Source: an uncultured Gammaproteobacteria bacterium
GTDB lineage: Bacteria > Patescibacteriota > Microgenomatia > Woykebacterales > RBG-16-39-9b
Length of the DNA: 64,000 nt
Assembly (NCBI GenBank): GCA_964367355.1
Contig: CAYIWY010000008.1
Coordinates: forward strand, 15,172 to 79,171
Direction: 5' to 3'
Each line of letters begins with the position of its first letter. Within the stretch, counting starts at the first letter, position 1. Under the pieces are notes generated by a model. That model had not been told where the DNA came from. It saw only the letters and a program-made list of their open reading frames with translations, and ran no database searches. Below are positions 18,814 to 27,097 of this stretch, in pieces. The position numbers and the translations under genes are program-made.

Positions 18814-19533
18814 ATGATTGAAATACTACCTGCAATTTTAGCAAAAACTTCAAACGACTATCATCACAAGTTAAAGACGGTTGAGCCGTTTACGCAGTGG
18901 GTTCAGATCGATATCGTTGATAATGTTTATGCGCGAAACCAAACCATTGATGCCAAAGTCGTTAGTTCAATCAGGACAAAATGCAAACTCGAAATTCAGT
19001 TGATGGTTGAGCGGATCGAAAATTGGATCGACCCTTTTATCAAAATTCGTCCTCACCGAATTATTGTTCCGATTGAATCAGCCAGGGAACCTTTGTTACT
19101 TGTTAGGCATTTAAAACAACACCAGATTCCGTTTGGTTTTTCGCTCGAGCCTCATACATCAGTTGAAATCTTGCAACATTTAGTTGATAAAATTGACGTC
19201 GCACTTCTTCTGGCAGTAAATCCTGGATTTTCCGGGCAGCATTTTTATCATGGAGTTTTGGACAAAATAAGAAAGCTTCGCGCAATGCGCCCTGACCTGC
19301 CGATCGAGATTGATGGCGGAATTGAACCTGATACAGCTAAAAAATGCGCGCAGGTGGGAGCAACAATCTTAGCTTCTGGAAGTTTCGTTTTTGACCATCC
19401 GTCAGGATCGCACGACGCTTCAGCGGCGGAAAATGATAAAATTGAGGGAGCTACTTATAGTGAAAAGGTAAGAAACTCGATAGAAGCATTAAAAGAAAGT
19501 GTCGAAAATATTATTCCTGAATCTGCCGTTTAA
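18814..19533 (+). CDS. rpe: ribulose-phosphate 3-epimerase
   Basis: IDIVDN, LLAVNPGFSGQHF, IEIDGGI motifs. Confidence 0.7.
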   Translation: MIEILPAILAKTSNDYHHKLKTVEPFTQWVQIDIVDNVYARNQTIDAKVVSSIRTKCKLEIQLMVERIENWIDPFIKIRPHRIIVPIESAREPLLLVRHLKQHQIPFGFSLEPHTSVEILQHLVDKIDVALLLAVNPGFSGQHFYHGVLDKIRKLRAMRPDLPIEIDGGIEPDTAKKCAQVGATILASGSFVFDHPSGSHDASAAENDKIEGATYSEKVRNSIEALKESVENIIPESAV

Positions 19534-19546
19534 GGAGATGAAAAAA

Positions 19547-19975
19547 ATGAGAAATATTTATATAGGAGTAGTAGTAATTTTATTTTTAGGTATCGGAGCA
19601 TTTGTTTTTTTCCAGAATACTCCAGCCAAAAATGATTCTACAAGCTCGTCAATTAGTACAAACACTGAAAATACAAGTAGTTCCGAAGTCAAAGATGCGG
19701 TAACTATTACTTACACGAGTTCTGGTTTTAGCCCAAACACAGTGATTGTAAAATCCGGTGGATTGATAACTTGGATGAACAATTCAGACGGACAAGTTCA
19801 AGTTGGAGCTAATCCTCATCCGATCCACACTGGTAACAAAGAAATTACTGGCAATGAATTTACACTTGATTTAGATAAAGGTCAACAAAAAACCATGACG
19901 GTAAATAAAACCGGAACGTTTGGTTATCACAACCATATTAATGCAGATGAAACTGGTACCATCATTGTAAAATGA
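19547..19975 (+). CDS. secreted cupredoxin-like fold protein (no Cu ligand Cys)
   Basis: Signal/TM then S-rich linker then a beta-rich domain (HPIHTG...GYHNH). Start chosen 9 nt after the AAGGAG RBS. Confidence 0.4.
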   Translation: MRNIYIGVVVILFLGIGAFVFFQNTPAKNDSTSSSISTNTENTSSSEVKDAVTITYTSSGFSPNTVIVKSGGLITWMNNSDGQVQVGANPHPIHTGNKEITGNEFTLDLDKGQQKTMTVNKTGTFGYHNHINADETGTIIVK

Positions 19976-19988
19976 TCTAAAACTGCCT

Positions 19989-20858
19989 ATGGATGAAGTA
20001 CGACAACACGATCCGCAAACACTAGAACATCTGGCCAAAATCGCTGAAGGTATCCGCGAGGATATAATTAATGCTTTGGTTGAAGCTAAAAGTGGCCATA
20101 GTGCCGGGCCTTTGGGAATGGCTGATGTTTTCACGGCGCTCTACTTTAGCGTTTTAAATATTGATCCGCAGAACCCGACCTGGCGTGACCGTGACCGAGT
20201 CGTCCTTTCCAACGGTCATATTGCTCCAGTTTTGTACGTCACTTTGGCACACGCTGGTTTTTTCCCCAAAGAAGAGCTTTTGACTTTAAGAAAAATCAAC
20301 TCTCGTCTCCAAGGCCACCCCCACTATGGTAGTTTGCCGGGAATCGAAAATACCGGCGGACCGTTGGCTCAAGGAATTTCCCAGGCAATCGGGATGGCTC
20401 TCGCTGCCAAAATGAACGGTGAAAAACATCATGTTTATTGTCTAATGGGTGACGGTGAGCAAGATGAGGGTCAAGTTTGGGAAGCTATTATGTTTGCCGG
20501 GAAAAATAAAATCGCGAATCTTACTGCGATTGTTGATCGCAACAATATTCAAATCGATGGTATAACCGAAAATATTATGCCGCTAGAACCACTGAAAGAT
20601 AAATACGAAGCTTTCAACTGGCACGTTATTGAAGTTGACGGCCACAACTTTGAAGAAATTATCAATGCCTGTAATTTAGCTAAAACAATAACTGAAAAAC
20701 CAGTCATGATCATCGCCCACACGATTCCAGGCAAAGGCGTCGATTTTATGGAATATGATTATAAGTGGCACGGCAAACCACCCACACCTGAAGAAGGTAA
20801 AAAAGCCTTACATGAACTGCGAACTCTCAAAGGAAGGATTACCGGAGAACATGAGTGA
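19989..20858 (+). CDS. transketolase, N-terminal (TPP-binding) subunit
   Basis: GHSAGPLG, GDGEQDEGQVWEA, ends GRITGEHE*. Split-tkt architecture. Confidence 0.85.
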   Translation: MDEVRQHDPQTLEHLAKIAEGIREDIINALVEAKSGHSAGPLGMADVFTALYFSVLNIDPQNPTWRDRDRVVLSNGHIAPVLYVTLAHAGFFPKEELLTLRKINSRLQGHPHYGSLPGIENTGGPLAQGISQAIGMALAAKMNGEKHHVYCLMGDGEQDEGQVWEAIMFAGKNKIANLTAIVDRNNIQIDGITENIMPLEPLKDKYEAFNWHVIEVDGHNFEEIINACNLAKTITEKPVMIIAHTIPGKGVDFMEYDYKWHGKPPTPEEGKKALHELRTLKGRITGEHE

Positions 20859-21549
20859 GGAAAATCCCATGACGGGTAATAAATCTGGCATAATCTTGGC
20901 AATTCTGGGAGTGGTCATCTCTTTCCAAGTCCCTTATCACCTATTCATTACTGGTCCTTTTAAATCGCTTGCCGGAACTATTAATAATTTAACTGACTTG
21001 AAAAACATTTATTTAGACGAAGCTAAAGCTAATGCCACGATAGGTTTATTTGAGCTTCTTATATGGATAATTCTGCCAACGCTTCTAATCTGGATAATAT
21101 TAATTTCATGGCGAAAAAGAAAATTTATTCAAATGAGTTTTATAGCTCTGAGTTTCGGGGTTTTGTTTTTCGCTGTAAATTGGGGACATAATCAGTTAGA
21201 TTTAAAACAGTATGAGAAATCTTCTAGATTTCAAAGAGCGGAAAGGTTGTTTATGGACGGTCAATATCCTAGCGTTATGGGGTATAAATTTAAAGATACC
21301 GACGAGACCTCTGAGAAGGTAAGCTCTTTAACCTTTGAAACAACTGAATATATAGAAACGATTTCGTCTTTCTATTTGACCAAGGGTTTTGTAGTTGATT
21401 ATGTTTCTGAAGATGGAAAGAATAAAACGTTAAGAAAAGAAGAAGGTTACAACCATGGAAATGATAAGTATGCTTATATGAGTATATCTAATCAGGTTAG
21501 CGGCAAGAACAAGGTTCACATTTCCAAAGTAGAGTTTGAGTTCCATTAA
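20851..21549 (+). CDS. hypothetical 3-TM membrane protein (cassette 1 inserted between the tkt halves)
   Basis: ATGAGT start overlaps the tktN stop. The C-terminal domain YK.KD....S..F.T......FY..KGF resembles that of cassette 3. Confidence 0.55.
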   Translation: MSEENPMTGNKSGIILAILGVVISFQVPYHLFITGPFKSLAGTINNLTDLKNIYLDEAKANATIGLFELLIWIILPTLLIWIILISWRKRKFIQMSFIALSFGVLFFAVNWGHNQLDLKQYEKSSRFQRAERLFMDGQYPSVMGYKFKDTDETSEKVSSLTFETTEYIETISSFYLTKGFVVDYVSEDGKNKTLRKEEGYNHGNDKYAYMSISNQVSGKNKVHISKVEFEFH

Positions 21550-21557
21550 GGGTCTAA

Positions 21558-21692
21558 ATGATAAACCCAAGAATTTTTGAAAAAGACCTGCCTGACGGCA
21601 AGGCAGGTGTGCAGCAAGCTGAAGTTAAATTGAAGCTAGCTGTGCAAGGTCGGGCCTTGCACAGAGGAAGGATCACTGGGGAACATGAATAG
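21558..21692 (+). repeat. junction repeat R1: 44-codon mini-ORF re-creating the tktC 5' end and tktN 3' end, with two internal hairpins
   Basis: Reads MINPRIFEKDLPDGKAGVQQAEVKLKLAVQGRALHRGRITGEHE*. A 24-bp stretch is identical to the tktC start. Inverted repeats CCTGCC/GGCAGG (21587-21607) and GTGCAAGG/CCTTGCAC (21642-21662). Confidence 0.7.
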
Positions 21693-22350
21693 TAACGAAG
21701 ATGGAACTAAAGCCTTGGGGAATAACGAAGTTAATAACGAACCACAGGGAGGATCTAAGTTTCAAATAAGGCATGGTAGAGCACTACTTCTAAGCGGTTT
21801 AATTTTATTAGTAGTCTTGGGGGGTTTGGAGTTACTGATTAGTCAAGGTAAACTCTTTAAAGAAGCAGAAAAAACCAAACCGACAACGGAGAAATCTAAA
21901 TATAATACGAGTCTTGAGGAAAACAATGATACAAAAATATCGACCGATTCAACCTCAGTGAACGCTACAGTTACCGAGTCAGTTAAAACAAATACAGCTC
22001 AGAACAGTCAAACAAAGGAACTTGGAATAGTTGAACAGACTCTTGTAATCAGAGATCCAGTGGAAATTCAAGCCACCTTTAATATTGCCTGGGGAGACGA
22101 GTCAGGTAAAAATGTTGAAATAATATTGATACACCCAGATGGAAGGCAAATAGAAATTGCTCCGGTTGATATCCAAACTTCCATCGATTATGAACTTGAA
22201 AAGAAGTCTTTCCAAGACAAATCTGAACAAAGTAGTGTTTTTAAATTATTTCCCAGCGACCCATTGGTGGCACCTCTGCCCGGTGAATGGACGATGCGTG
22301 TGACAGCTCCGGTGGGAACACATTTAGTGTTTGGGGTCCTTCAACTTTAG
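21685..22350 (+). CDS. hypothetical single-TM secreted/anchored protein (cassette 2)
   Basis: The ATG lies inside the GAACATGAATAG stop context of R1. One TM then a T/S/N-rich ectodomain. Confidence 0.55.
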   Translation: MNSNEDGTKALGNNEVNNEPQGGSKFQIRHGRALLLSGLILLVVLGGLELLISQGKLFKEAEKTKPTTEKSKYNTSLEENNDTKISTDSTSVNATVTESVKTNTAQNSQTKELGIVEQTLVIRDPVEIQATFNIAWGDESGKNVEIILIHPDGRQIEIAPVDIQTSIDYELEKKSFQDKSEQSSVFKLFPSDPLVAPLPGEWTMRVTAPVGTHLVFGVLQL

Positions 22351-22374
22351 TTAAAAAAGTAGCGATAATTAGTT

Positions 22375-22494
22375 ATGAATTTAAACCCAAAACTTTTTGA
22401 TAAAGACCTGACTGACGGCAAGGCAGGTGTTCAGCAAATTGAAGCTAGACGTGCAAGGACGGGCCTTGCAAAAAGGAAGGATAACTGGAACATG
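22375..22494 (+). repeat. junction repeat R2 (degenerate copy of R1, now fused in frame to the downstream ORF)
   Basis: Reads MNLNPKLFDKDLTDGKAGVQQIEARRARTGLAKRKDNWNMSE. Same hairpins (CCTGAC..GGCAGG, TGCAAGG..CCTTGCA). A 2-nt deletion in GGGGAACATG gives GGAACATG. Confidence 0.65.
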
Positions 22495-23250
22495 AGTGAG
22501 CAAAGCACAGATCAAATGGAAAAACCCAAAAAAAGCTTTTTACAAATTTTACTTCTTATAATTAGGGGTTTGCTAATACTAATTTTGCTGGGTTCGGCTG
22601 GTTATGTGGTTTTTATACATAACTGGTTTAACTTTAATGGTGCTAGAGCTACCCCAGAAGGAACCATAGGAAGTGACGTGATGAAAGGAATCTTTATAGC
22701 AGAAAACAGTAATCAGATACCTGAGTTAGCCGAGAAAAGTATTAGAAGTTCTCAATGGATGAATCCTATGGAATTATCTATTTGGGTATTTTTCCCATGG
22801 GTCTTGTTAGTATTTGCATTCTTTTTCTGGAGAGGTAGAGCAATAAAAAAGCTAAACGCGCTCCTTATATTAGCGCTTTTATTAGTAATATTTTCATTAG
22901 CCCAAACTACCAACATAATCGGTACCAATAAGAATATTGAAAAAGAATTACCCACTTGGAAAAAAGCTGCACAACTGATAGAACATCCTTCGGCAGATAG
23001 ATATAAAGTAACTGATGAAAGATCCATACAAGGAAGATTTACCAGTATTTCCTTTACGACTTTAGTTCCTAAAGCTGATTTAAACGCTTACTATGAAAAC
23101 AAAGGTTTTTCTAACGTAGAATTATATAGTGGCCGTGGACTCTGCAAAGAAGATAACATAATTTCATTTGGACAGGAGAGTTTGGAGATAAGGGTAGGTT
23201 TGAGCGTAAGTTTTGATTACTTAAGGAAAGATATTACACATGAATGTTGA
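22492..23250 (+). CDS. hypothetical 3-TM membrane protein (cassette 3, paralogous to cassette 1)
   Basis: Start MSEQ parallels the MSEE start of cassette 1. The ORF is open from 22375 through R2. The C-terminal domain YKVTDERS..FTSISFTT...YYENKGF resembles cassette 1. Confidence 0.5.
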   Translation: MSEQSTDQMEKPKKSFLQILLLIIRGLLILILLGSAGYVVFIHNWFNFNGARATPEGTIGSDVMKGIFIAENSNQIPELAEKSIRSSQWMNPMELSIWVFFPWVLLVFAFFFWRGRAIKKLNALLILALLLVIFSLAQTTNIIGTNKNIEKELPTWKKAAQLIEHPSADRYKVTDERSIQGRFTSISFTTLVPKADLNAYYENKGFSNVELYSGRGLCKEDNIISFGQESLEIRVGLSVSFDYLRKDITHEC

Positions 23251-23264
23251 ATATAAAAAATTAA

Positions 23265-24242
23265 ATGAGTAATTTTAACCCAAGAATTTTTGAAAAAGAC
23301 GTTGAACAAGCTGGGACCAGGGATGGCTATGGTCAGGCGTTGCTGGAATTGGGCGATTCCAATAAAGACGTTGTGGTTTTAACTGCTGACCTTGCCGAAT
23401 CAACAAGAGTGGAAGAATTTGGCAAGAAATTTCCAGACAGATTTATCGAATGCGGTGTAGCGGAACAAAATATGATGGGGATTGCGGCTGGTTTGGCCCT
23501 TGCTGGAAAAATTCCGTTCGTTTCTAGTTACGCAGTTTTTTCACCGGGTCGAAGTTGGGATCAACTAAGAGTTAGCGTTTGTTATACACAAGCCAATGTT
23601 AAAGTTGCCGGAGCCCATACTGGAATTTCGGTTGGGCCAGATGGAGCCACGCATCAGGCACTTGAAGATATCGCCATCGTGCGTGTCTTACCTAATATAG
23701 TAGTTGAAGTTCCCTGCGATGCGATTGAGGCTAAAAAAACAACTTTGGTCGCCGCCGCCCACAAAGGCCCGTTTTATTTCCGTTTTGGTCGGGAAAAAAC
23801 ACCGATCATTACGACTGAAGAAGCACCTTTCGAAGTTGGCAAAGCCGAAATTCTGAAAGATGGCGATGACGTTACTATTGTTGCCTGTGGACCACTTGTT
23901 TACCAATCATTATTAGCTGCAAAGCAATTGGAAGTAAAGGGAATAAATGTTAGAGTTATCAATAACCACACGATTAAACCGATCGATACTTTGACTTTGG
24001 CAAAAGCGGCAAAAGAGACTGGTGCGATAGTCACTGTTGAAGAACATCAGGTGATGGCCGGAATGGGAGCCGCCGTTGCGGAAAGTTTAGCGAAAAATTA
24101 CCCAGTGCCAATGGAATTTATTGGTATGCAGGATACATTTGGTGAAAGCGGTAATACAACTGAACTTTACGAAAAATACGGCATGAGTGTCGATGCAATT
24201 TTTAAAGCCGTGGAGAATGTTTTGAAAAGAAAGAACAGATGA
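23265..24242 (+). CDS. transketolase, C-terminal (pyrimidine-binding) subunit
   Basis: MSNFNPRIFEKD..., conserved transketolase C-half motifs (GPDGATHQALEDIA). Confidence 0.85.
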   Translation: MSNFNPRIFEKDVEQAGTRDGYGQALLELGDSNKDVVVLTADLAESTRVEEFGKKFPDRFIECGVAEQNMMGIAAGLALAGKIPFVSSYAVFSPGRSWDQLRVSVCYTQANVKVAGAHTGISVGPDGATHQALEDIAIVRVLPNIVVEVPCDAIEAKKTTLVAAAHKGPFYFRFGREKTPIITTEEAPFEVGKAEILKDGDDVTIVACGPLVYQSLLAAKQLEVKGINVRVINNHTIKPIDTLTLAKAAKETGAIVTVEEHQVMAGMGAAVAESLAKNYPVPMEFIGMQDTFGESGNTTELYEKYGMSVDAIFKAVENVLKRKNR

Positions 24243-25393
24243 TCAAAAATCTTCTTGTCTATCTGGTAACTCTTTTTGGTACTGCTGTTCTTGTGATGAT
24301 TTCTATGATTGCAGTTTTCCCTAAAGCTGCTGAAAGCGGCGGTTTTTTTGTAGCGATTTTAGCCCCTGTTTATGGCTTTCTTACTTATCGCTTTGCTAAT
24401 AATTTTTTTAATAACGCAAACAAGAAAATGAACCCAAAAATTAAGTGGCTGATTTTTCTATCAATTGCTGTGGTAACAACAGTCGCAACTCCTTTCTTAG
24501 TCCCATATCTTGGTGATGAGTCTAACCATCTTTTCAGAAGTGGGTTAGGAGGTTTAGTTTTTGGAGTTTGGTTTATCTTTATTCTTCCAAGTTTCTTTCT
24601 TAATCTCTTTGTAAGCTACTATCTAAAGATTCCAGATGAACTAAGTCCTATTTTGATTACAGTATTTGTTGGATTACAGTTTTTGGTTCTTGCAGGAGCG
24701 AAAAGGTTAGTTGATAAAGTGTCTGGGAAAAAGAAGATTTTACTTGTCCTGAGTCTAATTTTACTAACTTTACTAATATTTCTGGGTTTATTAATTGAAT
24801 ATAGTGTAGATAGATCTTTGCGAAGCCAATTTGATACAACGCCAAGAAATAAACAAACAGCAACCAAATCTTCTACCACCGCAGAGTTGAAACCTGTAAA
24901 ACAACAAATCCCCGGTTGGTTAATGTACCAAAGTGAGTATCTGAGTTTTGAACACCCCTCTCGGTTAAAAAGTTGTTGTGGTATACAAACTACAGCCCTT
25001 GATTCTAAGGAAAAAGAAGTAAAGCAAATAGCAGTATTGGGGGATGTTCCTGAAACTGACCTGGGATCAGGAAGACATTTTGATGGGTTAGCTATAGATG
25101 TGGATATAAACCCACAGAAAACCTCATTTGATAAATATGTAGAGAATGAAAAAAATGCTTGGAAACAAAATTATTTAGAGTTCACACAAAGATTATCAGA
25201 GAAAACTTCAGAAAGTGAATTAATTGTGAATGGACAAAAAGGAATGATACTTAAAGGTTATACTTGGTTTGGGGCTGATATTCTCTATGTTCCTTTTCCT
25301 GATAATCAGAAAATACTTATCATAGCTAAAACGGAAAAAACCGCTGGGAGCTTTACAGAGTTTGATCAAGTTCTTAAAACATTGAGGTTTTAA
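24239..25393 (+). CDS. hypothetical polytopic membrane protein
   Basis: 384 aa with about 6 TM then a soluble C-terminal domain. No recognisable motif. Confidence 0.5.
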   Translation: MIKNLLVYLVTLFGTAVLVMISMIAVFPKAAESGGFFVAILAPVYGFLTYRFANNFFNNANKKMNPKIKWLIFLSIAVVTTVATPFLVPYLGDESNHLFRSGLGGLVFGVWFIFILPSFFLNLFVSYYLKIPDELSPILITVFVGLQFLVLAGAKRLVDKVSGKKKILLVLSLILLTLLIFLGLLIEYSVDRSLRSQFDTTPRNKQTATKSSTTAELKPVKQQIPGWLMYQSEYLSFEHPSRLKSCCGIQTTALDSKEKEVKQIAVLGDVPETDLGSGRHFDGLAIDVDINPQKTSFDKYVENEKNAWKQNYLEFTQRLSEKTSESELIVNGQKGMILKGYTWFGADILYVPFPDNQKILIIAKTEKTAGSFTEFDQVLKTLRF

Positions 25394-25493
25394 ATCTTTG
25401 TCTATTACTAAACCCATCTTACTTTGCTAGAATTAGATAACCAGATTCGAGCAATCATTGACAAACTGTAACTATTGTATATACTTTAGTTAT

Positions 25494-25769
25494 ATGCAAA
25501 CAGTAATTCATATCAAGGCAGACAAAGAAGTGAAGGAAAACGCAGCCAAGGTTGCGGCAGATCTCGGTCTTAATTTAAGTGATGTGATAAACGCTTCACT
25601 GAGAAATTTCATCAGGACCAGAGAGATTTATTTTTCCCATACTCCCCGAATGACTCCCGAACTTGAAAAGCTTCTTGACAGAGTTGAAGAGGACATTAAA
25701 AAAGGGCGTAATTTATCGCCTCAATTTAAATCAGCTGATGAAGCTATTGCCTGGTTGAGAGCTCGATGA
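25494..25769 (+). CDS. type II antitoxin, RelB/DinJ family
   Basis: MQTVIHIKADKEVKENAAKVAADLGLNLSDVINASLRNFI has a DinJ-like ribbon-helix-helix N-terminus. Promoter TTGACA-16-TATACT upstream. Stop overlaps the toxin ATG. Confidence 0.75.
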   Translation: MQTVIHIKADKEVKENAAKVAADLGLNLSDVINASLRNFIRTREIYFSHTPRMTPELEKLLDRVEEDIKKGRNLSPQFKSADEAIAWLRAR

Positions 25770-26023
25770 TAATTGTTTTTCATAGAGACTTTAAAAAACA
25801 TTACAAAAAGTTACCCAGCAAAGTAAAGGCGAAACTGGAAGAGAGGTTAAGAATTTTTAAGGATGAGGAGTTTGATCCGGTTCTAAATAATCATGCCTTA
25901 AAAGGCAAGTGGTTGGGTTATAGGAGCATAAATGTGAGCGGTGACATCAGGGCAATATTTAAACGTGAGGCTGAGAGTGCGCTTTTTGTTGCAATAGATA
26001 CCCACAGCAATTTATACAGTTAA
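25766..26023 (+). CDS. type II toxin, YafQ/RelE family mRNA interferase
   Basis: 85 aa with an ATGA overlap to the antitoxin. RelE/YafQ-like KGKW...H...F pattern. Confidence 0.7.
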   Translation: MIIVFHRDFKKHYKKLPSKVKAKLEERLRIFKDEEFDPVLNNHALKGKWLGYRSINVSGDIRAIFKREAESALFVAIDTHSNLYS

Positions 26024-26230
26024 TAATTTCCTCAAGATTTTTTGTTATAATTAGCCCATGGTTACGAAGTGAGTTTCAATACTGAGACATCTTTAAAGAG
26101 ATAGAAGTTATTAACCCTTTCAGGTAAAATATTAAATAATGACTGCCCATGATTGGTCCCGCCTGACATGCCTGACGTCAGTCTGGCGGGCAGGTAGAAA
26201 AGCTAAAAATAAATTGACTGGAGGTTGTTT

Positions 26231-27097
26231 ATGACCGTTAAAGATTGGCTTGAGAAAGCTAAGCGTGAACACTTTGCTATTCCCGCCTTGAATGCTGGGA
26301 CTTTGGAAGTTCTCAAGGCCATAGTTCAAGCCGCAGTTGAGGCGCGTTCCCCAGTTATTATCGAAACCGCTATTGGCGAAACCAAATGGATGGAAGCCGA
26401 AAACATTCTCTGCATCTGTCGCAATTTTTCGGACAAATACAAAGTTCCGATCATAATTAACCTTGATCACGCTTATACTTTTGAAGACTGCCGTCCGGGA
26501 ATTGATGCTGGTTTTGATTTAATCCATTTTGACGGTTCTAAACTTCCTTACGAAGAAAATGTGGCGACGGCGAAAAAAATTGTTCCTGAATGTCATGGCA
26601 AAGGCCAAATTGTCGAAGGGGAAATGGATCGAATTCCCGGCGAAGGTTCTGAACTTCATGCTGCAGGAAGTGTTGATCAAGCAACTATTGATAAAGGAAA
26701 GAGCCACCCCGAAACCGCAGCCAAATTTGTCACCGAGACTGGTGTGGATATTTTCGCTTCTTTTTTTGGTAATATTCACGGAATTACACAAGGGTACATA
26801 CCTCACCTTGATATTGATCTTTTAGGGCGTATTCAAGAGGCGATTCCAGATACATTTTTGTCAATGCACGGTTCTTCCGGAACACCGGATGACCAGGTTC
26901 GAGCAGCCGTTGCTGGTCCAGTGGTTAAAGTTAATGTTAACACCGAAATTCGTTTGGCTTACCGCCAAGCTTTAGAAAAATCTTTATCAGAGAAAAAAGA
27001 ACTTGCCCCTTATAAATTTTTCCCACCAGTTGTCGAAGCAGTTAAACAACAAGCACTGCGTTGGATTGGTCTTTGCGGAAGTGGGGGTAAGTTGTGA
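26231..27097 (+). CDS. fba: fructose-bisphosphate aldolase, class II (short form)
   Basis: NLDHAYTFEDC, IHFDGS, FGNIHG metal-binding and catalytic motifs. GGAGG RBS 6 nt upstream of the ATG. Confidence 0.8.
   Translation: MTVKDWLEKAKREHFAIPALNAGTLEVLKAIVQAAVEARSPVIIETAIGETKWMEAENILCICRNFSDKYKVPIIINLDHAYTFEDCRPGIDAGFDLIHFDGSKLPYEENVATAKKIVPECHGKGQIVEGEMDRIPGEGSELHAAGSVDQATIDKGKSHPETAAKFVTETGVDIFASFFGNIHGITQGYIPHLDIDLLGRIQEAIPDTFLSMHGSSGTPDDQVRAAVAGPVVKVNVNTEIRLAYRQALEKSLSEKKELAPYKFFPPVVEAVKQQALRWIGLCGSGGKL

Follow-up and report, generated by a model that had tools for sequence, protein, structure and literature searches.

The transketolase considered here is encoded in two halves, tktN and tktC. 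In the 64,000-nucleotide stretch of contig CAYIWY010000008.1 that was analysed (the window), these halves lie 2.4 kb apart and have three genes, g1, g2, and g3, between them on the same strand, with two short units, made largely of copies of the tkt gene ends, standing between the three genes. Promoterless membrane-protein open reading frames (ORFs) enter this site directly behind the tktN stop and reuse the overlapping ATG, and the tktC start is restored after them. We propose that the locus is a hypervariable cassette array seated in the tkt stop/start overlap, and that it is built and reshuffled by general recombination, illegitimate as well as homologous, with no dedicated integrase. Belief and doubt are about evenly balanced in our own judgment of this proposal. 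The features concerned are the following.

19989..20858, + strand: tktN, the N-terminal, thiamine pyrophosphate (TPP)-binding half of transketolase (Pfam Transketolase_N, E = 6e-61)
20851..21549, + strand: g1 (cassette 1), a 232-aa orphan membrane protein, distant paralogue of g3 (ORF with three transmembrane (TM)-like segments)
21558..21692, + strand: unit 1 (U1), a 44-codon putative relay ORF (sequence alignment, folding)
21685..22350, + strand: g2 (cassette 2), 221 aa (ORF with a single TM helix at the N-terminus; C-terminal part rich in beta structure)
22375..22499, + strand: unit 2 (U2), with its ORF in frame with g3 (sequence alignment, folding)
22492..23250, + strand: g3 (cassette 3), a 252-aa orphan membrane protein (ORF with TM-like segments)
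23265..24242, + strand: tktC, the C-terminal half of transketolase, with the pyrimidine-binding and C-terminal domains (Pfam Transket_pyr, Transketolase_C)

The split locus and its cassettes

A first-pass annotation of this DNA had placed three membrane-protein genes between tktN and tktC, and the ORFs, their TM-like segments, and the Pfam domains on the two tkt halves bear this out. Each of g1, g2, and g3 has one to three hydrophobic TM-like segments, and their G+C content is 35–40%, against 44% in tkt. The start codon of g1 lies inside the final 8 nt of tktN, ATGAGTGA. g1 and g3 are paralogues that share 24–29% identity across their full length and open with identical first codons, ATGAGTGAG; g3 would be 291 aa long if read from the unit-2 ATG at 22375. 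A profile search with g1 and g3 in 5.8 billion proteins matched only g1 and g3 themselves. Comparison shows g2 to be unrelated to the other two, and its sole homologue, P0124 (64% identity), stands alone between tktN and tktC in a related locus, L107. The AlphaFold models of g1 and g2 have a mean pLDDT of 47–49.

The same junction in relatives

To judge from the names that TktN homologues bear, the organism belongs to the ultra-small bacteria of the candidate phyla radiation (CPR), close to Candidatus Woykebacteria. Comparison of the junction among relatives, which the first-pass annotation had suggested, uncovered empty, one-, two-, and three-cassette states within the window's clade. Empty sites, in which the tktN stop and the tktC start overlap by 8 nt (ATGAGTAA or ATGAATAA), are found in four lineages (L006–L009, L010, L012, and L108/L109), with a TktN identity of 84–91%. 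In the ancestral state the two genes overlapped by 8 nt, as had been surmised from the start-on-stop arrangement in the window. A single cassette without a unit is present in L107, L112, and L113, and in L114 the same cassette as in L112 begins before the contig stops inside it. By far the closest relative is L110, whose flanking genes are 87–88% identical to those of the window and whose locus reads tktN, gA (130 aa), unit, gB (118 aa), tktC, with no detectable relationship between gA and gB. The L111 locus reads tktN, c1, unit, c2, its contig stopping in the second cassette, and L115 has a cassette behind tktN on a contig that ends ahead of tktC. L107, L110, and L012 all come from SRR22388xxx runs, so different states of the site may coexist in one study.

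There are three cassettes with two units in the window, two with one in L110, and one with none in L107 and L113, so that n cassettes are accompanied by n−1 units. Units are seen solely between cassettes, none follows the last one, and single cassettes, including the sole homologue of g2, lack them; the earlier claim that each cassette is flanked by a junction repeat does not hold. The cassettes of the three unit-bearing lineages are mutually unrelated, and all are predicted membrane proteins. Nearly all cassettes in these lineages start with M-N or M-S, since they take over the overlapping ATG together with its second codon.

The duplication expected at the att site of an integrative element is not seen: single cassettes are flanked only by a 6–8-nt repeat, ATGARTAR, and no integrase was found. 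Because these nucleotides are unavoidably doubled by any insertion that leaves the two overlapping genes whole, the repeat was dropped as a target-site duplication indicative of transposition.

A wider view comes from a GTDB scan with TktN, which yielded 70 CPR and DPANN loci that hold both halves; the best match is 71% identical, and the window's species and close relatives are not among the matches, so the scan serves as a broad CPR survey only. In 25 of these loci, at least 150 nt separate the tkt halves, and the intervening space is occupied mostly by small membrane-protein ORFs and sometimes by toxin–antitoxin (TA)-like pairs. Junction arms are duplicated at this distance as well: L080 repeats 18 nt of the tktN end, L098 repeats 36–48 nt of the tktC start as a mini-ORF with an ATGA overlap at its end, and in L057 a copied tktC start is fused to the ORF that follows.

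The contents of some distant CPR slots can be tentatively named. Two hold putative four-helix-bundle proteins of the 23S rRNA intervening-sequence type (L047 7915–8214, L056 7885–8256), one a putative TA-like pair that is nucleotidyltransferase-like (L057 7678–8423), and one a putative MazF/PemK-like protein with a zinc-ribbon protein (L098 8859–9591). The TA-like pairs of L057 and L098 are accompanied by 48–57-nt duplications of the tktC start.

Anatomy of the units

Each unit consists, in order, of a tktC-5′ copy, hairpin 1, a linker, hairpin 2, and a tktN-3′ copy, over about 120–135 nt, and U1 and U2 align with 84–89% identity. Such units had been described behind cassettes 1 and 2, and the alignments agree. 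The template of the left arm is the first 36 nt of tktC; within it, the copy AACCCAAGAATTTTTGAAAAAGAC is equal at 24 of 24 nt between U1 (21564–21587) and tktC (23277–23300). The tktN-3′ copy matches the native end at 23 of 27 positions, reads GGAAGGAT..GAACATGA, and, as had been noticed, holds the ATG of the next cassette within its re-created stop. The count expected by chance is 0.00–0.01 per unit part.

In U1, the tktC-5′ copy spans 21558–21587, hairpin 1 21586–21608, hairpin 2 21640–21664, and the tktN-3′ copy 21665–21692, with a stop codon that overlaps the g2 ATG. Hairpin 1 is ACCTGCCT-GACGGCA-AGGCAGGT, with an 8-bp stem in this unit, and hairpin 2 is CTGTGCAAGG-TCGGG-CCTTGCACAG, with a 10-bp stem; together they make up two of the five perfect GC-rich hairpins in the whole window. 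The left arm of U2 (22375–22407) is a tktC-5′ copy of the ancestral, or L107, type; its hairpin 1 (22406–22428) has one stem mismatch, and its hairpin 2 (~22449–22473) has a 7-bp stem. The 44-codon ORF of U1 and the 2-nt deletion in the tktN-3′ copy of U2, through which the U2 ORF continues in frame into g3, had both been read correctly at first pass. To these we add an 11-nt internal tandem duplication in U1 (21617–21638, GCTGAAGTTAA / ATTGAAGCTAG), not found in the other three units, which sets the U1 ORF in the native tktN frame (GRITGEHE-stop).

Alignment of the four units with the native gene ends resolves the unit as an in-frame chimera. Its first part, tktC codons 1 to ~16 (..DKD VQQ), leads straight into the final ~63 nt of tktN (EEGKK..GRITGEHE-stop; ~21 codons), that is, tktC codon 16 to tktN position −63, and the joint, CAGCAA followed by GAAGAAGCTAAA, is best kept in L110. 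The start of the distal gene thus precedes the end of the proximal one, an order that marks a tandem duplication or an unequal crossover, not an imported site. Hairpin 1 is a clean 21-nt (7-codon, LPDGKAG) in-frame insertion within the tktC-derived part. The right arm of hairpin 2 consists of the native A-L-H codons of tktN (GCCTTGCAC vs GCCTTACAT), and its left arm is additional sequence complementary to the A-L-H stretch.

In minus-strand reading, the complement of the tktC-5′ copy, CTTTTTCAAA, comes after hairpin 1, and a scan flags this arrangement as terminator-like for antisense transcription; the geometry is the same in the other units.

Conservation of the units

Between lineages, the units are 80–85% identical and their core of hairpin 1, linker, and hairpin 2 is 75–84% identical, while the four-fold sites of the adjacent tktN are 47–61% identical. 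Hairpin 1 is nearly invariant (21–23 of 23 nt between lineages). Since U1 and U2 are no more similar to each other than either is to the L110 or L111 unit, they are not recent copies, nor are they being homogenised. A signature, ACTGG(GG), that occurs in no native tktN end is common to the right arms of U1, U2, and the L111 unit. This speaks against their conversion from the native gene, and on this ground gene conversion was dropped as the sole cause of unit conservation.

In all four units the frame stays open between the tktC-type ATG and the ATG of the next cassette, and indels after the first ATG come in multiples of three. The units differ in the frame in which the tktN-3′ arm is read and in how the open frame ends: an 8-nt overlap in U1 and the L111 unit, an ATGA overlap in the L110 unit, and an in-frame fusion in U2. 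Conservation at the protein level therefore does not extend to the C-terminal halves of the unit peptides. From these comparisons, constraint appears to act on the nucleotides of the unit and on the openness of its frame.

Allelic exchange

The arms of the units also record where they have been. The left arm of U2, ATGAATTTAAACCCAAAACTTTTTGATAAAGA, equals the tktC start of L107, which there lies behind the g2 homologue, and the spacer ahead of it is similar too. The right arm of U1 ends in CATGAATAG, as in L107 and L108 (CATGAATAA); the native end in the window is CATGAGTGA. g2 thus carries flanks of its own that match the L107 locus. In the left arm of U1, substitutions specific to the tktC of the window extend rightwards as far as hairpin 1; U2 and the units of L110 and L111 are ancestral there.

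Against the flanking-gene identity of 87–88% with L110, tktN and tktC reach only 82–83% (tktC ~80% in one comparison). tktN is a mosaic: over the compared span, 19971–20858, identity is 89–95% in the first ~250 nt and 72–80% thereafter. This drop, and the switch inside tktN, show therefore that the tkt locus has been replaced by homologous recombination, with crossovers within the tkt genes.

A second slot at the tktC–fba junction

The next junction of the operon has independently been used in a similar manner. Its features in the window are as follows.

24239..26230, + strand: second insertion slot, between tktC and fba (true fba start at 26231)
24239–25393: 384-aa membrane protein in this slot
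25458–26023: RelB-like antitoxin and YafQ-like toxin pair, between the 384-aa protein and fba
26098–26156: relic of the fba leader with its first 6 codons
26157–26194: GC-rich nested palindrome, TCCCGCCTGACATGCCTGACGTCAGTCTGGCGGGCAGG, between the relic and true fba starts

In L108, tktC and fba overlap by ATGA, and the RelB/YafQ pair is absent from every relative examined. Other genes occupy the slot elsewhere. In L006 and L010 these encode membrane proteins of 170 and 161 aa, respectively, and L012 has a PNPOx gene there, with a 5-codon fba relic (ATGAATGCACATGAATAG) behind the tktC stop (L012 7300–7350). Three cassettes are present in L110 (9614–12213); ahead of both the second and the third stands a copy of the fba leader with the first 8–10 fba codons (MTAHDWLE). 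The slot supports a general, recombination-based addition of genes at coupled gene junctions in these genomes.

Just upstream of tktN, a gene for a cupredoxin-like secreted protein (19528–19975) has 50–62% identity to its counterpart in L110 (6457–6876), its neighbours having ~90%, and it is missing from L012; it is another fast-evolving or exchanged gene of the operon.

A proposed mechanism

Our proposal would account for these observations as follows. A single unit would have originated from a tandem duplication of the ~110-nt junction or from an unequal crossover between two copies of the locus. Once formed, the unit would present tktC-5′ and tktN-3′ homology in permuted order, so that a unit arm could recombine with the native gene end in another allele and thereby concatenate single-cassette alleles (tktN–gX–tktC) into arrays, and the reverse reaction would loop out a circle of cassette plus unit. 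Each cassette would accordingly bring along flanks of its own, a tktN-3′ end to its left and a tktC-5′ start to its right, which matches g2.

As for why a unit is retained, it is tempting to propose that it re-creates the native translation-initiation context of the tktN 3′ end for each downstream cassette, the putative relay ORF from the tktC-type ATG to the next start codon being part of that role. The 8-nt overlap of the split transketolase operon, present in relatives, serves g1 again in the window, and the units re-create it for g2 and g3; translational coupling across it is predicted from the sequence. The hairpins probably act at the level of RNA, in processing or stability, though this role is a guess.

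Several points weigh against the proposal. A coupling function leaves the conservation of hairpin 1 and of the linker unexplained, and the conservation of the unit could stem from recent horizontal spread instead of selection. The homology arms are very short (tktC-5′ ~36 nt, tktN-3′ ~25–30 nt), and the n−1 rule rests on two complete arrays only. The allele switch in U1 falls at the hairpin-1 boundary, which would be consistent, too, with exchange at a point set by the hairpin. Finally, no population variant or circular form was seen among the assemblies of the strain, all five of which are identical.

Alternative explanations

The first-pass annotation read the locus as iterative, site-specific insertion at the tktN–tktC overlap by an integron-like mechanism. 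In its explicit form, the unit would be an analogue of attC, the hairpins protein-binding elements, the tktN/tktC overlap an attI-like platform, and the recombinase would be encoded elsewhere. A conserved hairpin unit of ~120 nt does stand between unrelated promoterless ORFs in three lineages, with a nearly invariant hairpin 1; the two unit hairpins are among the five strong GC hairpins of the window; the allele switch of U1 coincides with the hairpin-1 boundary; and the slot is in use across many CPR lineages. Hence, the recurrent slot and the conserved unit of that earlier claim stand. Its site specificity is less likely, the unit having the structure of an unequal-crossover joint and the tkt genes being mosaic, which points to homologous recombination. 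The unit arms are plainly copies of tkt coding sequence, and the units number n−1, none being found behind the last cassette or with a single one.

Nor is there the architecture of an integron site. An attC site is an imperfect palindrome with pairing ends, R″ (RYYYAAC) and R′ (GTTRRRY), and extrahelical bases (PMC5027507, PMC3053210). Reading of the sequence revealed no RYYYAAC or GTTRRRY cores at the unit ends, and in folding these ends do not pair, only the two local hairpins forming. Two pairs of hairpin 2 vary in a compensatory manner across the four units, but as many as 63 of 500 shuffles show covariation to this degree, which is thus not significant; in U2, both hairpins are weakened with no compensating change. 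No integrase, transposase, or other recombinase domain (including Phage_integrase) was found in ORFs of at least 120 aa in the window, as had been reported at first pass, or in the related loci.

A search for extra copies of the hairpin module had also been suggested. Additional units are likewise missing: no unit part recurs elsewhere in the window, a covariance model of the unit recovers only the four known units from 90 sources (1.07 Mb of CPR loci), and none turned up in JGI metagenomes; hairpin 1 has no match in viral contigs. A search of 19500–25500 against Rfam in E-value mode gave no match, and among 1.84 billion representative proteins the U1 mini-ORF matched itself and two spurious repeat proteins only. 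We consider a dedicated site-specific system of this kind unlikely, though it deserves to be kept in view.

A broader version may also be considered. The unit could be the core of an undescribed CPR cassette-capture system, a portable permuted junction whose hairpins would be read by an unknown recombinase, or on which RecA would act through minimal homology. Promoterless genes would be stacked, excised as circles of cassette plus unit, and exchanged between lineages, with the overlap of an essential split gene serving as both landing site and expression platform. This is a speculative suggestion, to which we attach a low probability; were it true, an analogue of the integron would have evolved independently and would illustrate the birth of such a recombination site from the ends of host genes.

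A simpler account starts from a single inserted gene: two rounds of unequal crossover would have copied it and left the units as neutral scars, and the three genes would have diverged in place. The chimeric tktC-5′/tktN-3′ joint and the n−1 count are as such an account would have them, and g1 and g3 are paralogous over their full length, open with identical codons, and have no homologues elsewhere. However, g2 is unrelated to g1 and g3 and its homologue stands alone at the same site in L107, and the same unit parts wholly different genes in L110 and L111. Moreover, the units are 80–87% identical and far more conserved than four-fold sites, whereas g1 and g3 are saturated at 29% amino acid identity; an equally old neutral scar should have decayed. 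Pure in-place duplication is thus largely refuted by L110, L111, and L107, and we consider it improbable as an explanation of the array.

Similarly improbable, in our opinion, is a scheme in which GC palindromes of a REP- or MITE-like kind (repetitive extragenic palindrome; miniature inverted-repeat transposable element), such as hairpin 1 and the palindrome at 26157–26194, insert where genes begin and there bring about, or stabilise, duplicated ends of the neighbouring genes, the cassettes landing afterwards in this duplicated, non-essential DNA. The clean in-frame insertion of hairpin 1 in the tktC-5′ copy is what such an element would produce, and the palindrome between the relic and the true fba start shares with hairpin 1 the 9-mer TGCCTGACG, which occurs twice in the window against 0.14 expected. 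In addition, hairpin 1 (ACCTGCCTGACGGCAAGGCAGGT; window 21586–21608 and 22406–22428) is present as an identical 24–25-nt hairpin in five unrelated JGI/TARA contigs (L017, L019, L020, L024, and L025), in three of them in frame inside long ORFs, two of which read NLPDGKAGV as the units do.

An exact search of JGI metagenome contigs with hairpin 1 gave 14 matches, none in a tkt context; the cross-phylum matches are few and could partly be due to chance among GC-rich stem-loops. Hairpin 1 occupies one position in the tkt units, inherited and not repeatedly inserted, and has neither terminal inverted repeats nor target duplications around it; hairpin 2 is mostly native tktN codons; and L080, L098, L057, and L012 duplicate junctions without any hairpin. 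Neither is the unit a dispersed repeat of the REP or MITE kind, within the window or in the 1.07 Mb of CPR loci. The three long ORFs with hairpin 1 are, as predicted from their sequences, a putative DEAH-box protein (possibly a helicase), a putative protein with a type IX secretion system (T9SS) sorting tail, and a 383-aa ORF that reads the opposite strand.

Collapsed or chimeric repeats, against which the first-pass annotation had cautioned, have a negligible probability: some Logan contigs do end in the units or in the tktC 5′ region (window 21611, 23319, and 23344), but the locus is 100% identical in contigs of five sequencing runs from three projects and the independent assemblies therefore exclude an artefact, exact repeats are at most 24 nt long, below the assembler k-mer, and the homologous units of two other lineages carry their own substitutions.

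Implications

If general recombination does build these arrays, then streamlined genomes with overlapping, coupled genes can still gain and swap accessory membrane-protein genes, and a duplicated gene junction can turn into a reusable, self-restoring docking site. The locus would offer a case, traceable in sequence, of a cassette-array spacer born from host gene ends, and so bears on the origin of integron cassettes and attC sites. In practical terms, the arrays set the two genes of an essential enzyme kilobases apart, by which pathway annotation may be misled, and they mark hypervariable surface-protein loci in CPR episymbionts. To our knowledge, no such arrangement has been described; literature searches by keyword and by the exact hairpin string found none, which is a weak negative, and the hairpin-1 sequence itself occurs in no paper.

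Comparison with known systems

Integron arrays and clusters of attC sites lacking integron integrases (CALINs), of which Vibrio superintegrons with their near-identical attC sites of the VCR (Vibrio cholerae repeat) type are an example, share much with the tkt array: unrelated, promoterless, mostly orphan small ORFs in one orientation, an upstream expression platform, a conserved structured spacer of ~120 nt, and a content that differs between close relatives. A CALIN needs no IntI next to its array. The tkt array, for which no IntI was found, differs in that its unit has neither R″/R′ cores nor an end-to-end imperfect palindrome, in having n−1 units instead of n, made from copies of the flanking essential genes, and in its platform, a stop/start overlap inside an operon where the integron has attI and the Pc promoter. 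The likening of the locus to an integron in the first-pass annotation thus fails on its architecture and on the lack of a nearby integrase.

With the orphan toxin/immunity cassette arrays found downstream of rhs/cdiA, and with silent-cassette systems, the comparison turns on homology. In those systems, a retained fragment of a conserved gene precedes each variable module and gives homology for swapping. The tkt fragments differ in deriving from a split housekeeping enzyme, and the tkt cassettes are whole ORFs, not alternative gene ends.

REP sequences, bacterial interspersed mosaic elements (BIMEs), and in-frame MITEs are small GC-rich stem-loops found between cistrons or in frame within ORFs (PMC3184786, PMC5896051), and hairpin 1 behaves alike. 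The unit as a whole differs from them, since it is not dispersed (no further copies in the window) and is mostly gene-end sequence.

The joints of tandem duplications and unequal crossovers, as in RecA-dependent amplification, are closer in form, with the same distal-before-proximal chimera, n−1 joints, and paralogous outer genes (here g1 and g3). However, the tkt unit is conserved across lineages, parts non-homologous genes, and has gained two hairpins and an open relay ORF.

Homology-facilitated illegitimate recombination in natural transformation, as defined in PMC3240628, likewise leaves foreign genes beside a conserved anchor gene, together with short duplications or relics of the start of a recipient gene, of the kind seen in L098, L057, L012, and the fba leader copies of L110. 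The difference is that here the process would be deduced from sequence alone. With that proviso, the dynamics of the array appear to resemble those of replacement islands combined with homology-facilitated illegitimate recombination.

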